Origin: a virus
Virus record (IMG/VR): IMGVR_UViG_3300045988_087586
Strand: one strand, 5' to 3'
Length of the DNA: 18,704 bases
A program made the position numbers and the translations under genes. Positions 1 through 18,704 of the stretch are shown here, one piece after another. The notes under the pieces were generated by a model, which was not told the DNA's origin, did not search any database, and saw nothing but the letters and a program-made list of their open reading frames with translations. Position 1 is the first letter of the stretch, and each line of letters opens with the position of its first letter.

Positions 1-336
1 TGGGAGGGGTGTGGGTTTGTGTGAAGATTTTCCCTTGTGGTTTTTTTTTATTGTGTGTTATTTTTTTTTGTTCTGTGTTGTGTGGTGTTTGTTGTGTTTG
101 GGTGTGTGTGTTAGATTTTTTTTAGTCCAGTTTGTCAATTTTTTTTATTGACACAATGTCAATGGTTGTATGTGCAATGTTTTTTATGTGCGTATTGATT
201 AACTGGGTTAACTCATGCTGTCTAATTATTGGTAGGTTACGGTTTTGTAACCGTAGTTTGCCGACCGGTAGGTAGGTGTCTTTTATTATCTTGCGTTCTT
301 TTGTTTTTGGGCGTGTCGTTGTTTTGTTTGTGTTAT
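1..336. repeat. Left inverted terminal repeat (ITR) of a linear protein-primed genome
   Basis: 1-318 is identical to the reverse complement of 18387-18704. There is a TT vs CC mismatch at 319-320, then 321-336 match again. All homopolymer runs (T9, T9, T8, T8, T6) were checked on both arms. Confidence 0.97.
133..163. promoter_or_regulatory. Cluster of three TGTCAAT/ATTGACA heptamers inside the ITR; includes an inward-facing TTGACA (-35-like) at 148-153
   Basis: TGTCAAT at 133-139, ATTGACA at 147-153 and TGTCAAT at 157-163 form two overlapping palindromes. No convincing -10 lies at 17 bp; the best is TGCAAT at 173-178. Function as promoter, operator or origin element is unresolved. Confidence 0.35.
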
Positions 337-370
337 GATAAAAATATCAACCACAAGGGAGGTAAACAAA

Positions 371-2793: not shown

Positions 2794-3228
2794 ATGGAAA
2801 ACACTAATACCGCACTTGTCGCATTCAATACCGAAAGCACTGAACTCGGCACAGTCCAGCACTTCATCGACACCTCCACTCGTGAAGGCAAAATCAAGCT
2901 CTACTCGGCACTACAGAACGCCGAAAAGTTGGACGAACATTTGAACGAAAACCTGAACATGGTGAACGCCGTCGCTCAGGCCGTGCAAGTGACTGACGAT
3001 CAGACGGGCGAAATCTCCAATACCGTGCGTGTCATCATCGTAACCGACGATAACAAGGCGTATGCGGCCACCTCCCCCACTTTGGCTGCCGGATTGAATA
3101 CCATGTTCGGCATTTTTGGAACGCCGAACACTTGGGACGCTCCGCTTGCTATCAAGGTGGTGGAACGTCGTTCCCGCCGTGGCTTCAAGTTTTTCAGCAT
3201 CGAGCCGGTGGATGAAGCGACGAAGTGA
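2794..3228 (+). CDS. Single-stranded DNA-binding protein, phi29 p5-like
   Basis: SD AAGGGAAAGG. The N-terminus MENTN.. and blocks VNAVAQAVQVTDD..., ..AYAATSPTLAAGL.. and ..IKVVERRSRRGFKFFSIEP parallel recalled phi29 p5 (MENTN.., ANAIAQYKQVSD.., ..LYSAISKTVAEAA.., ..VKVVQGTSSKGNVFFSLQL). Its position lies upstream of the TP and polymerase genes. Confidence 0.75.
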   Translation: MENTNTALVAFNTESTELGTVQHFIDTSTREGKIKLYSALQNAEKLDEHLNENLNMVNAVAQAVQVTDDQTGEISNTVRVIIVTDDNKAYAATSPTLAAGLNTMFGIFGTPNTWDAPLAIKVVERRSRRGFKFFSIEPVDEATK

Positions 3229-3262: not shown

Positions 3263-3288
3263 GAGAGCACCCAAAATTGGGTGCTCTC
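3263..3288 (+). promoter_or_regulatory. Perfect 10-bp stem-loop (GAGAGCACCC-AAAATT-GGGTGCTCTC) between the SSB and TP genes
   Basis: Read directly from the sequence. There is no U-tract on either strand, so it is not a canonical terminator. It could be an attenuator, a processing site or a 5' stabiliser. Confidence 0.5.
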
Positions 3289-3312
3289 ACCATCTTAAAA
3301 GGGGTACGCTAT

Positions 3313-4284
3313 ATGTCTCGCAGTCGGAAACGAAAGCACGTCAAGGCACGTCAAGCCGCGCAGGCACGCGCCGCGCGTAACGTCGAACAGCTCGGAGCCT
3401 ACTCTCACTCAAATCTTGCAAAAACCGCTGATAAACAGTTGGTCAATATCGCGAAAACCCTAGGCAAGGAATGGGAGCGGCAGAAGAGACAGACCATAGC
3501 GGAAGCGAAAGCAACCCAATACCACGCCAACGCCGTGGAAAAACCGACAAAAAAAGACATCATGTTTGCCCAACGCACCCCTATAACGAATGCTCAGATA
3601 GAAGCGGAACCCGTGGCGAAACGGCGCAAGCTGCTCAGACAGCAGCAGCGGAAAATCAATGCGGCACGACGGAAGATCAACGACTGGAACCGCGAACGGG
3701 CAATGCCGAAGCGTAGCGTGTACGATCAGCGTATAGAAGAACTTGCTGGAACTACTGGCGAGGGTTTTGGGCGTAATCAAATCATCCCGTCAAAACTTAC
3801 GGACTTTTTGCAAATGACAAATGTTCTGAGCGACGAGGCGTTCGTGCGCGGTCAATTGGAAAGCGGACACCGTAATGAACTGCGTGAACAGATACATGAT
3901 GCCGCCGAGATCTTGGGATTGCGCACCGAGCAAAAAAAACATAAGACGCCCAAAAAGCAAGGGAGGGGTAGGCGAACCGAAGATCTATACGGCGAGCGTG
4001 AGTGGCCGTCTTACATGCCTCATGGACGCTACGAGATTTTTGAAAAAATCTTGGCCACCTCGCTCGGCTCGAAACGGTTGAAACGATTCCGCAGTCTATC
4101 CGCCGCACAGAAACGCGCTTTCATCGAACAGACGGACGCCCCCCGTATCGTTTTTGATTGGACGGTGTATGACCCCGTTCGACACGGTTTTACGTCGATT
4201 TTCAGGGGCAACAGTGAGGGGTATCAGCGCTCACGACGGCAGTTCGACCGCTGGATGGAGGAAGCCGGCGCGCTGGAAAAGTAG
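3313..4284 (+). CDS. Candidate terminal protein (replication primer), 323 aa, very basic
   Basis: ATG at 3313 follows AAAAGGGG. The ORF-track TTG start at 3277 lies inside the hairpin. The gene sits immediately upstream of the protein-primed polymerase as in phi29. Its N-terminus MSRSRKRKHVKARQ is like phi29 TP MARSPRIR... No catalytic motif is expected, so the call is positional. Confidence 0.6.
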   Translation: MSRSRKRKHVKARQAAQARAARNVEQLGAYSHSNLAKTADKQLVNIAKTLGKEWERQKRQTIAEAKATQYHANAVEKPTKKDIMFAQRTPITNAQIEAEPVAKRRKLLRQQQRKINAARRKINDWNRERAMPKRSVYDQRIEELAGTTGEGFGRNQIIPSKLTDFLQMTNVLSDEAFVRGQLESGHRNELREQIHDAAEILGLRTEQKKHKTPKKQGRGRRTEDLYGEREWPSYMPHGRYEIFEKILATSLGSKRLKRFRSLSAAQKRAFIEQTDAPRIVFDWTVYDPVRHGFTSIFRGNSEGYQRSRRQFDRWMEEAGALEK

Positions 4285-4311
4285 TGGCCAGCAATCAAGG
4301 GAAGTTATACT

Positions 4312-5766
4312 ATGGAATTGCATGACGATAAAAGGGTAGGCTTGTGGTGTGCGGATAATGTCGTACGATTTACGGACGGTACCGCATTGCATGACATTAT
4401 CGCACCCAGTCGGTTGCTGGCGTCCATCATGACGGGAGGCAAACTCACCGTCTACACGACTAACCCCGATATTTTAGACCCTTTTATCGCACATGTCGTA
4501 CACGTACTCCCTCATAATGAGCATAATGCAAATCTGAGCTGGGATGCGATAATATCCCAAAAAGGCAAATTTTTTAGTTTTACCGTGCGTATCGACCGCG
4601 AGAATTCCGCACGCTTTTTCGATATATCGAATCTTTTGCGCGAAAACTGCAAGCTTACCATGACTGACACTCAACTGCTCACTATTTTGCGCGAATACGA
4701 TCAGCGCGGCTTGTGTAAGATCACAGCCGGTGGGGCGAGTATGGAGGCTTTCGCATCCGGAGAATGGAGATGGTATTACGACAAATTCCCCCAGCTCGAA
4801 CCGGACGCGAAAAAATCATTGCATGATGCCTATATCGGCGGCTTTATGGTTGCCAAAGAGGGGGCATATGGGAGGGCTATCGATGTTGACTGTAATTCCA
4901 TGTATCCGTCCATATTGCGAGACGAATGGCTTCCATGGGGAGTACCGGAACCGTACGAAGGACGATACGTGCAAGATGATGATATGCCGTTGCATTGTGA
5001 TGAAATCACGTTCCGCGCGGAATTGAAACCGGACGGATACCCTTTTTTATTAGACAATCGTAGTGTCTACGGACTTAACCGACTCACCAGTACGCGCGGC
5101 TATATCACGCTCGTGCTCACCGATATCGACCAGCAATTGCTCTACGAGAATTACGATGTAAGCGTCTACCGGCATGTGAGGGGGTGGAAGTTCCGGCGTT
5201 CCAAGGGGTTTTTCCGCTCGTTTATCGACGAATGGGGTGAATTGAAGCAGCATGCGACGGGGGAGCGTAGACAAATGGCGAAACTGATTATGAACGCACT
5301 CGTAGGGAAAATGGCGAGTCTGCCCAAAGGAGTCGTCATGCTCCCCTTATCCAAAGACGGCATAACCCTAGACTGGGACATTGCCCAGCGCGAAGAGTCG
5401 AATCTGAAAACCGACTATCTGCCAGTACCAGTATGGGTCAACGCTTATGCACGACGCAAACTCGTGGACGTATGCCACGCCAACGCCACCCGACTCTTGT
5501 ACGCCAACACGGACGGGTGTATCCTATCCGGCTGGGAGCCGGTGAAGTCATGCGAAATCCACCCTACCGAACTGGGCAGATGGAAAATCGCAGCCCGATA
5601 TGAAAGGCTCACTATTTTAGGCATGAACCGATATCAAGGGTGGAGGGATGATGGCGGGGTTGATATCTGCATGGCCGGAAGCCAATTTACGCAGCCCATT
5701 CCTTATGGAAAGTTCCGGCACGGCGTGCGAGTCATGGATGATTACGGTACATTGGTCATGTTATGA
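4312..5766 (+). CDS. Family-B DNA polymerase, protein-primed phi29 type, compact (484 aa)
   Basis: Blocks matching recalled phi29 polymerase: KITAGGASMEAF (RMTAGSDSLKGF), AYIGGF (AYRGGF), DVDCNSMYPS (motif A, DVNSLYPA), LPWGVPEPYEGRYVQDDDMPLH (LPYGEPIVFEGKYVWDEDYPLH), FIDEWGE...AKLIMNALVGK (motif B), LLYANTDG (motif C). Confidence 0.93.
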   Translation: MELHDDKRVGLWCADNVVRFTDGTALHDIIAPSRLLASIMTGGKLTVYTTNPDILDPFIAHVVHVLPHNEHNANLSWDAIISQKGKFFSFTVRIDRENSARFFDISNLLRENCKLTMTDTQLLTILREYDQRGLCKITAGGASMEAFASGEWRWYYDKFPQLEPDAKKSLHDAYIGGFMVAKEGAYGRAIDVDCNSMYPSILRDEWLPWGVPEPYEGRYVQDDDMPLHCDEITFRAELKPDGYPFLLDNRSVYGLNRLTSTRGYITLVLTDIDQQLLYENYDVSVYRHVRGWKFRRSKGFFRSFIDEWGELKQHATGERRQMAKLIMNALVGKMASLPKGVVMLPLSKDGITLDWDIAQREESNLKTDYLPVPVWVNAYARRKLVDVCHANATRLLYANTDGCILSGWEPVKSCEIHPTELGRWKIAARYERLTILGMNRYQGWRDDGGVDICMAGSQFTQPIPYGKFRHGVRVMDDYGTLVML

Positions 5767-5772
5767 TATACT
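5764..5772 (+). promoter_or_regulatory. Extended -10-like element TGaTATACT overlapping the polymerase stop codon
   Basis: TGATATACT. It would start a transcript near 5779. Confidence 0.3.
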
Positions 5773-5778
5773 TTGTCT

Positions 5779-5941
5779 TTCGAGCGTTGACTTTCGACTG
5801 GGAATGACATAGGTTGGACTGCCTCGGCTGAGAATGCCGCCGACCATGATTTGCTACTATGGTGGTAGTGCCCTACGATTTTCGACTCGCGCTCACATAA
5901 GACGATTCAGACCCTCCGTGATTGGAGGGTCATTTTATTTT
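5779..5941 (+). ncRNA. Candidate structured non-coding RNA (packaging-RNA-like by position and size); alternatively the 3' UTR of the early operon
   Basis: About 160 nt run from the promoter-like element to the intrinsic terminator with no ORF. Local helices: GGTTGG(5812-5817)/CCGACC(5840-5845) enclosing CGGC/GCCG; CTACTA(5854-5859)/TGGTAG(5863-5868); a closing helix GAGCG(5782-5786)/CGCTC(5890-5894). A TTTCGA(C/G) motif occurs three times. Confidence 0.3.
5910..5941 (+). terminator. Rho-independent terminator at the early/late boundary
   Basis: GACCCTCC-GTGATT-GGAGGGTC followed by ATTTTATTTT. Confidence 0.8.
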
Positions 5942-5951
5942 GCTTGTGGCA

Positions 5952-5960
5952 TGATATAAT
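5952..5960 (+). promoter_or_regulatory. Candidate late promoter, extended -10 TGaTATAAT without a -35
   Basis: Perfect TGnTATAAT 36 nt upstream of the scaffold gene, immediately after the terminator. Confidence 0.5.
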
Positions 5961-5995
5961 TTTAGCGGAAACATTGCCAATAGATAGGAGCTTGC

Positions 5996-18331: not shown

Positions 18332-18368
18332 TTTATTTTTCCTTTCCCTTGAAGTTGATAGTTACGCT

Positions 18369-18704
18369 ATAACACAAACAAAACGGCGACACGCCCAAAA
18401 ACAAAAGAACGCAAGATAATAAAAGACACCTACCTACCGGTCGGCAAACTACGGTTACAAAACCGTAACCTACCAATAATTAGACAGCATGAGTTAACCC
18501 AGTTAATCAATACGCACATAAAAAACATTGCACATACAACCATTGACATTGTGTCAATAAAAAAAATTGACAAACTGGACTAAAAAAAATCTAACACACA
18601 CACCCAAACACAACAAACACCACACAACACAGAACAAAAAAAAATAACACACAATAAAAAAAAACCACAAGGGAAAATCTTCACACAAACCCACACCCCT
18701 CCCA
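18369..18704. repeat. Right inverted terminal repeat (ITR)
   Basis: Reverse complement of 1-336 with a single dinucleotide difference (18385-18386 GG vs left 319-320 TT). The window ends exactly at the repeat. Confidence 0.97.

Follow-up and report, generated by a model that had tools for sequence, protein, structure and literature searches.

A divergent protein-primed DNA polymerase of family B with a vestigial exonuclease domain in a Bifidobacterium podophage

Family B replicases are textbook proofreading enzymes, and the protein-primed polymerase of phage phi29 has been laboriously engineered toward an exonuclease-free form for sequencing and for work with modified nucleotides. In phi29 polymerase, the exonuclease domain forms two DNA tunnels together with TPR2, the thumb and the palm, and the narrow downstream-template tunnel forces strand separation (PMC1635332). 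Switching between synthesis and editing is coordinated by the thumb, whose tip (K555, L567) lends stability to the primer terminus bound at the exonuclease site (PMC1475753). A 2024 survey describes the exonuclease domain as conserved in all family B polymerases but that of mavirus, the only protein-primed family B polymerase (pPolB) for which it reports a remnant of this domain (PMC11071308). Here we describe the 484-residue polymerase encoded by IMG/VR record IMGVR_UViG_3300045988_087586. The window, i.e. the whole stretch of 18,704 bp that was analysed, is a complete linear phi29-like Bifidobacterium podophage genome bounded by inverted terminal repeats (ITRs). The protein is by descent a divergent pPolB, and it lacks the canonical exonuclease motifs, the motif-B Tyr and the first Asp of motif C. 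Judging from its sequence and its predicted structure, it is most likely an active, strand-displacing, non-proofreading protein-primed replicase.

The polymerase gene and its presumptive ribosome-binding site are as follows.

4312..5766, + strand: polymerase open reading frame (ORF), 484 aa, from the ORF list and its translation.
4297..4304, + strand: Shine-Dalgarno-like AAGGGAAG, 7 nt before the ATG, read directly.

The protein matched the Pfam family PF03175 with 89.2 bits (gathering score, 25.8) and phrog_1907 with an E-value of 5e-40, and the position of its N-terminus agreed with that of its relatives. A phmmer search against the PDB retrieved phi29 polymerase (1xhx, E=3.5e-43), residues 125-440 aligning with phi29 residues 177-499, and the polymerase half was ~33% identical to phi29. 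When hhalign was used to compare a profile of the short enzymes with one built from 18 diverse canonical enzymes, residues 8-480 were matched with 100% probability. An AlphaFold2 model based on an 80-sequence alignment had a mean predicted local distance difference test (pLDDT) score of 92.6 and a predicted template-modelling (TM) score of 0.90, with about 92-95 pLDDT for the N-terminal blocks. Over the whole chain it could be superposed on phi29 polymerase (1xhx/2pyj) with a TM-score of 0.82-0.83, and on the model of the BadAztec1 enzyme (BFVD) with TM-scores of 0.83/0.86 and a root-mean-square deviation of 2.5 Å. The 91-aa deficit relative to phi29 is made up of 51 residues before KITAGG, 6 in the middle and 34 after motif C. 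The initial annotation of this DNA, made by eye from the sequence, was thus right in describing both ends as shorter, the sizes of about 57 and about 36 residues that it gave being slightly too high. The compact enzyme is shared by 167 fetched homologues, which have the same short length (464-496 aa) and the same N-terminus and are referred to below as the short clade.

The exonuclease domain and the thumb, in both of which the protein departs from phi29, are as follows.

4312..4683, + strand: exonuclease domain remnant, aa 1-124; homologous region in phi29, residues about 25-176.
4450..4485, + strand: degenerate Exo II-equivalent VYTTNPDILDPF, aa 47-58, in which I or L replaces phi29 D66.
4615..4641, + strand: FFDISNLLR (aa 102-110), corresponding to the D-S-L-K-K-L-P block of canonical enzymes.
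5668..5763, + strand: shortened thumb, about aa 453-484, ending ..DDYGTLVML.

Residues D12, E14, N62, D66, K143, Y165 and D169 of phi29 are invariant in the 18 diverse canonical enzymes, and all seven are absent or deleted in the 484-aa polymerase. The domain is homologous to its canonical counterpart and contains none of Exo I (DxE), Exo II (Nx2-3FD), Exo III (Yx3D) and the Kx2h Lys. The hhalign alignment starts at W12, opposite phi29 W25, leaving the Exo I strand (phi29 D12, E14) without a counterpart; the absence of Exo I, already suspected in the initial annotation, was borne out, as neither the protein nor any frame of the genome contains an Exo I D-x-E. The best candidate proposed at that time, C-A-D-N-V-V (aa 13-18), aligns with phi29 26-31 and is not Exo I. 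A gap of roughly 35 residues opposite phi29 about 134-170 covers K143 (Kx2h) as well as Y165 and D169 (Exo III). Because they lie inside this gap, Exo III (Y-x3-D) and the Lys of Kx2h have been deleted, not substituted. The L-x3-D formerly taken for Exo III actually corresponds to L115-D119, which aligns with phi29 about 131-135.

What is left of the domain has kept parts of the old fold, and the blocks vY-ttN, IISqkGKFfSftV and D-x-x-N-L-l-R can still be recognised. Among 35 clade members, only G23, Y48, N107 and L108 are conserved in the N-terminal domain, N107 being the sole invariant residue of the remnant. Y48, which aligns with phi29 Y59, is 80% conserved in the clade and is the best-kept residue of the Exo II-equivalent block. 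In the same 35 sequences, no column of the N-terminal domain was acidic in more than 60% of cases. Missing from the thumb is the tip hairpin formed in phi29 by residues about 553-575 (K555, G563-G564 and L567 among them), the C-terminus reading ..RVMDDYGTLVML compared with ..KMKPKPVQVPGGVVLVDDTFTIK in phi29. The joint loss of the thumb tip and of the catalytic site is as expected if editing has been abandoned. The proposal that the enzyme may lack proofreading is therefore strongly supported in silico, and no alignment recovered the exonuclease acidic residues or a canonical DTD.

We considered the possibility that the phage still proofreads, with a non-canonical active site in the remnant or with another phage or host 3'-5' exonuclease that is recruited in trans to the replisome. 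The ratio of nonsynonymous to synonymous substitution rates (dN/dS) was about 0.11 in the N-terminal remnant and about 0.07 in the polymerase domain (least saturated pairs: window versus BP1 and versus MT836241), approximate values, with dS near saturation (about 1). These low ratios indicate that the remnant, like the polymerase domain, is under purifying selection, which speaks for this possibility, and several early ORFs have no assigned function. Yet, the remnant contains no conserved acidic or His residue in the 35 clade members, and the thumb tip that would deliver the primer is deleted. Neither the Pfam/PHROG scans of the tested ORFs nor a six-frame search with a hidden Markov model (HMM) provided another exonuclease or a DnaQ-like match. 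The only early ORF of suitable size is the following one.

1884-2405, + strand: Cys-rich early protein, 173 aa, no Pfam, PHROG or PDB match.

Its AlphaFold2 model, of modest confidence (pLDDT 63, core about 80), is all-helical and not DnaQ-like. We know of no precedent for proofreading in trans with a protein-primed PolB. Retained proofreading is thus improbable. Distant clade genomes encode members of the 173-aa protein family at the same place (L012, 2085-2633; L013, 1376-1876).

Two candidates for a missing editing function were rejected on these grounds. A hidden or split exonuclease gene was sought by running the canonical-domain HMM against the 435 stop-to-stop frames, and only the polymerase's own remnant was found (5.8 bits, E=0.24). 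A trans-acting proofreader encoded in the genome was set aside because the Pfam/PHROG scans of the tested ORFs were negative and the 173-aa ORF is all-alpha. The scanned ORFs likewise contained no helicase, second polymerase or nuclease, and none of these was found in three distant clade genomes either.

The polymerase half carries the following elements, some of them in non-canonical form.

4831..4842, + strand: YxGG motif, Y174-I-G-G177, invariant in all alignments.
4888..4908, + strand: motif A, D193-C-N-S-M-Y198-P, with its catalytic Asp and its steric-gate Tyr.
4924..5208, + strand: TPR1, about aa 205-299 (phi29 261-358), a continuous hhalign match.
5281..5310, + strand: motif B, K324-L-I-M-N328-A-L-V331-G332-K, Lys, Asn and Gly kept.
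5326..5400, + strand: TPR2 beta-hairpin, about aa 339-363 (phi29 398-420), from hhalign; model strands E341-346 and E354-359.
5500..5517, + strand: motif C, Y397-A-N399-T-D401-G, codons TAC GCC AAC ACG GAC GGG.
5626..5634, + strand: KxY equivalent, N439-R-Y441, Lys lost and Tyr kept.

Motif A aligns without gaps with phi29 D249-V-N-S-L-Y254-P, and its Asp and Tyr are found in 167/167 and 163/167 clade sequences, respectively. The two-residue insertion that had been postulated in this motif is not supported, phmmer, MAFFT and hhalign all giving ungapped alignments in which the preceding 'DV' belongs to an ordinary beta-strand. The distances from motif A to B (131 aa; 134 in phi29) and from B to C (77 aa; 75 in phi29) match those of phi29, and TPR1 and TPR2 are therefore retained, as the initial annotation had stated and as hhalign and the model confirm. 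TPR1 is inserted between motif A and the fingers, and TPR2 between motifs B and C. TPR1 displayed the lowest dN/dS of the polymerase in the least saturated pairs.

The sequence KLIMNALVGK read for motif B, with its Ser and Tyr lost, proved correct: the phi29 fidelity residue Y390 is replaced by V331 and the Ser by A329. The protein thus lacks what has been described as the invariant tyrosine of family B (PMC1976434). Of the short-clade sequences, 163/167 have V, I, T, A, C or S at the corresponding position, whereas 124/138 exonuclease-intact sequences have Y. In phi29, the Y390S substitution cuts the discrimination against misinsertion from 3x10^5 to 3x10^2 (PMC1976434). The codons also confirm the Y-A-N-T-D-G reading of motif C. 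Compared with the two-Asp YxDTDS consensus, Asn stands for the first Asp and Gly for the Ser, and only the second Asp, a metal ligand, is left. Asn occupies the first-Asp position in 149/167 short-clade and 0/161 other sequences, and the change from D to N arose at least three times within the clade. A large NTDG sub-lineage combines it with the Ser-to-Gly change and with loss of the KxY Lys (NRYQ or GLYQ). Over the whole clade, the KxY Lys position is N in 134/167 and G in 13/167 sequences, and the Tyr is kept in 166/167. The earlier suggestion of an altered metal or dNTP (deoxynucleoside triphosphate) site therefore holds in part: an altered dNTP site is supported because the Tyr equivalent to phi29 Y390 is a Val, and the case for the metal site is tempered, as both ligand Asps (D193, D401) are intact.

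With Asn for the first Asp of motif C and neither the motif-B Tyr nor the KxY Lys present, and in view of the impairment of phi29 D456 and Y390 mutants, the protein could be thought to be a dead or crippled polymerase homologue with a structural or priming-only role, another polymerase performing bulk synthesis. We regard this as very improbable. The metal-ligand Asps (D193, D401), the steric gate (Y198), the pre-motif-B Lys (K312), the motif-B Lys, Asn and Gly (K324, N328, G332), T400 and the KxY Tyr (Y441) show a conservation of 90% or more across the clade, under strong purifying selection, and the equivalents of phi29 D249, K383 and D458 are each found in 167/167 fetched sequences. Clade members with a canonical DTD(S/G) have the same architecture. 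No other polymerase was found in the scanned ORFs of the genome, and, to our knowledge, host replisomes do not replicate an ITR layout. Moreover, cultured isolates with the same enzyme grow lytically (PMC12694917). Active piPolBs, the polymerases of pipolins, carry SxTTDG, which showed that metal coordination needs no carboxylate other than the second one (PMC5695915). An NTDG motif C is therefore compatible with catalysis, the second Asp alone ligating the metal.

In the explanation that we favour, that of an active replicase devoid of editing, ORF 4312-5766 would encode the phage's only DNA polymerase, a terminal protein (TP)-primed and strand-displacing enzyme descended from a phi29-like proofreading ancestor. 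The 3'-5' exonuclease would have been lost, its domain persisting as a scaffold of roughly 125 aa, and a deletion would also have removed the thumb tip, which guides the primer end towards the editing site. One probable reason for keeping the scaffold is that it forms, with TPR2, the wall of the downstream-template tunnel responsible for strand displacement. The scaffold probably also carries contacts with the TP, as suggested by the alignment of Y48 with phi29 Y59; phi29 Y59, H61 and F69 are essential for this interaction (Eisenbrandt 2002, as cited in PMC1635332). The 18.7-kb ITR-bounded genome would then be copied without intrinsic proofreading, and the Val in place of the motif-B Tyr has probably relaxed base selection as well. 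The enzyme is probably a replicase of lower fidelity. Several points weigh against this explanation. The loss of activity is deduced from the sequence and a predicted model, the TP is assigned by its position only, and the dN/dS values suffer from the near-saturation of dS mentioned above. Mutants of phi29 D456 and Y390 are severely impaired (Bernad 1990, as reported in PMC5695915; PMC1976434), so that compensating changes must be assumed in the present polymerase. Finally, a host exonuclease or an unrecognised phage exonuclease may act in trans.

The compact architecture is not an artefact. An exhaustive search of 1.84 billion representatives identified about 18 clusters at 50% identity with this architecture (454-496 aa). 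The features exceed by far what chance could produce and belong to a discrete clade. A clade profile gave at least 494 bits with the short clade versus at most 302 bits with canonical enzymes, and the short clade is monophyletic, forming one side of a branch with 100/100 support. It includes the cultured, independently sequenced isolates BP1, BD811P1-2 and BadAztec1. The same enzyme with Val in motif B and NTDG in motif C is found in the lytic phages BP1 and BD811P1/P2; BP1 is a propagated podovirus (PMC12694917). Single queries for relatives of P0124, P0134 and P0135 in IMG/VR (three in all) returned none, and the diversity of the clade was drawn from the search of representatives and from a profile search. 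The genes just before the polymerase gene are as follows.

2794..3228, + strand: phi29-type single-stranded DNA-binding protein (SSB), PF17427 8.6e-18; phrog_6243.
3277..4284, + strand: TP candidate, basic, 335 aa from TTG, assigned from position and clade conservation only.

A 5' truncation, a frameshift or a mis-assembly could in principle conceal a true protein with a normal exonuclease domain, and the upstream ORF is indeed in frame with the polymerase gene, one TAG lying between them. Yet, length and N-terminus are common to the 167 homologues and to four independent isolates, BP1 and BadAztec1 each have the two genes in different frames, no exonuclease fragment was found in the six frames, and the deletions are internal as well as terminal. 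An N-terminal frameshift, which the initial annotation had named as a possible source of error, does not agree with a short N-terminus shared by the isolates and the 167 homologues, and we consider that an artefact is effectively refuted already. In the interval 4282-4311, the 335-aa ORF and the polymerase gene share a frame, with a single TAG plus 27 nt and no other stop. A TP-polymerase read-through fusion was rejected since the frames of the two genes differ in BP1 and BadAztec1, and for the same reason the shared frame looks coincidental.

The state of the exonuclease was also surveyed in 140 representative pPolB clusters. All four exonuclease carboxylates were kept in 103 of these; 17 belonged to the short clade, 6 were apparently N-terminally truncated or had lost Exo I only, and the remaining 14 were other full-length enzymes (510-589 aa) with degenerate exonuclease motifs. 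The latter, all metagenomic (P0161, P0164, P0173, P0177, P0181, P0192, P0194, P0214, P0216, P0238, P0258, P0259, P0260 and P0264), retain a full-size domain and the thumb hairpin; in 8, the motif-B Tyr is missing too. Physical trimming of the domain and the thumb is confined to the window's clade. A quick tree built on the polymerase domain alone implied at least 10 changes of exonuclease state, with 5 well-supported contrasts; decay therefore seems to be recurrent in phi29-like phages. The motif-B Tyr was lost in 25/31 exonuclease-degenerate versus 11/103 intact enzymes, which suggests a link between exonuclease decay and Tyr loss, the association not being significant among phylogenetically independent pairs (5 supported pairs). 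Three sequences of 537 aa, sister to the Av-1/Mantle-type actinophage polymerases (P0320, P0321 and P0327), start with MDDVSPETG..RVWAWG; their Exo I DxE seems degenerate, with Exo II, Kx2h and Exo III canonical. Either Exo I alone has been lost in them or their start codon is misassigned; P0321 represents 291 sequences.

Comparison with phi29 polymerase (gp2; 1XHX, 2PYJ, 2EX3) thus shows a common whole-length fold, TPR1, TPR2, YxGG, the Asp and steric-gate Tyr of motif A, the Lys, Asn and Gly of motif B, the second Asp of motif C and the same setting (SSB, TP, here a candidate, polymerase, ITRs at the genome ends). Unlike phi29, the present enzyme is 91 aa shorter, has lost the exonuclease motifs and the thumb tip, and has Val in motif B, NTDG and NRY. 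Engineered exonuclease-minus phi29 polymerase (D12A/D66A, N62D) would be the functional equivalent of the strand-displacing, non-editing pPolB predicted here. It differs in that point mutations were introduced in a full-size domain, whereas the natural enzyme has a trimmed domain and a long co-adaptation. The D12A/D66A substitutions impair strand displacement in phi29.

Within the same clade, the polymerases of BadAztec1 (YP_009857352 / A0A6G6Y082), BP1 (XPO95121) and BD811P1-3 share the compact architecture, all without exonuclease motifs and motif-B Tyr. BadAztec1 differs in having a canonical YADTDS and a basic residue in KxY. The records of these polymerases are annotated merely 'DNA polymerase', and the literature found on these or on phi29-like phages does not mention exonuclease loss (PMC11476376, PMC12694917). 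Mavirus pPolB and the polinton-like pPolB-S1H fusions (PMC11071308 / PNAS 2024) belong to eukaryotic viruses of another realm, and their loss is independent. It came with the gain of a helicase, whereas the phage clade gained none and would keep a TPR2-based strand displacement. The piPolBs (PMC5695915) resemble the present enzyme in the replacement of the first Asp of motif C and the final Ser-to-Gly change (SxTTDG versus YxNTDG), in an altered KxY and in the presence of TPR1 and TPR2. They differ by an active exonuclease and by their KTRG/KH motifs (KH-X8-KTRG), where this phage has ..LGMNRYQ.. (Tyr kept, no KTRG), and the phage possesses a TP-like gene and ITRs; piPolB is not the closest relative by sequence. 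A similar combination of conserved palm catalytic residues, replaced exonuclease carboxylates and truncated thumb is found in divPolA1 (PMC11348598), which, however, is a phage family A polymerase (PolA) and is not protein-primed.

If these predictions are correct, a gut-abundant clade with cultured members has dropped proofreading while keeping the scaffold. The remnant would then separate the structurally indispensable parts of the domain (template tunnel, TP contacts) from parts that serve editing only, namely the Exo I strand, the Kx2h/Exo III segment and the thumb tip. We tentatively suggest that the clade could be a natural mutator lineage, without proofreading and with a nascent-base-pair pocket widened by the motif-B Tyr-to-Val change, though this is somewhat doubtful. 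If true, the per-base mutation rate would exceed that of proofreading phi29-like phages by 1-3 orders of magnitude. Drake's value is roughly 0.003 mutations per genome per replication, and a mutator clade would stand well above it. If exonuclease decay is recurrent among small TP-primed phages, as the 10 or more changes on the polymerase tree suggest, genomes of about 15-20 kb would be at a size where proofreading is dispensable or disadvantageous. Phages BP1 (of B. pseudocatenulatum) and BD811P (of B. dentium) would provide a tractable system to relate mutation rate to genome size. From the point of view of biotechnology, the predicted enzyme would be a compact, naturally co-adapted, exonuclease-free and probably strand-displacing polymerase.

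The termini of the genome are organised as follows.

1..360, no strand assigned: left ITR (replication origin), 360-nt arms, 97% complementary, reaching both ends.
18345..18704, no strand assigned: right ITR, partner of the 1..360 arm.

The first 120 nt of both genome ends are identical. Both termini (1-30, 18675-18704) read 5'-TGGGAGGGGTGTGGG..., are G/T-rich and lack a simple reiterated terminal base such as the AAA of phi29. Nearly all genes are carried by the + strand, including those of a phi29-type major capsid protein, a tail knob, a connector and a lower collar; Pfam/PHROG scans further identified a CHAP lysin, a gp16-type packaging ATPase, a holin and an endolysin. An Rfam scan of the whole genome detected no phi29 pRNA and no other family. 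Directly 3' of the polymerase gene there is a 229-nt gene-free gap (5767-5995).

The order SSB, ORF, polymerase matches that of Av-1 and Mantle, in which the middle ORF is annotated as TP. Throughout the clade, the SSB and polymerase genes flank a conserved basic ORF of 300-335 aa, and the three distant clade genomes share the synteny SSB, 300-330-aa ORF, short polymerase and capsid. The TP candidate had no similarity to the Av-1 and Mantle TPs by BLASTP, nor, as a clade profile, to PDB entries. Its start is more likely the ATG at 3313 (MSRSRKR..) than the TTG at 3277, its relatives beginning with MSRK.. or MARK...

The closest records are those of the Bifidobacterium podophages BP1 (87% polymerase identity) and BD811P1-3 (about 75%); the honeybee phages BadAztec and BadAargau are distant, with about 31% polymerase identity. 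The polymerase coding sequence deposited for BD811P2 (L008, OP172659.1; 1489-1603) begins 38 codons after the GTG of BD811P1. The annotated BD811P2 polymerase is probably truncated at its N-terminus, all relatives implying the upstream GTG.

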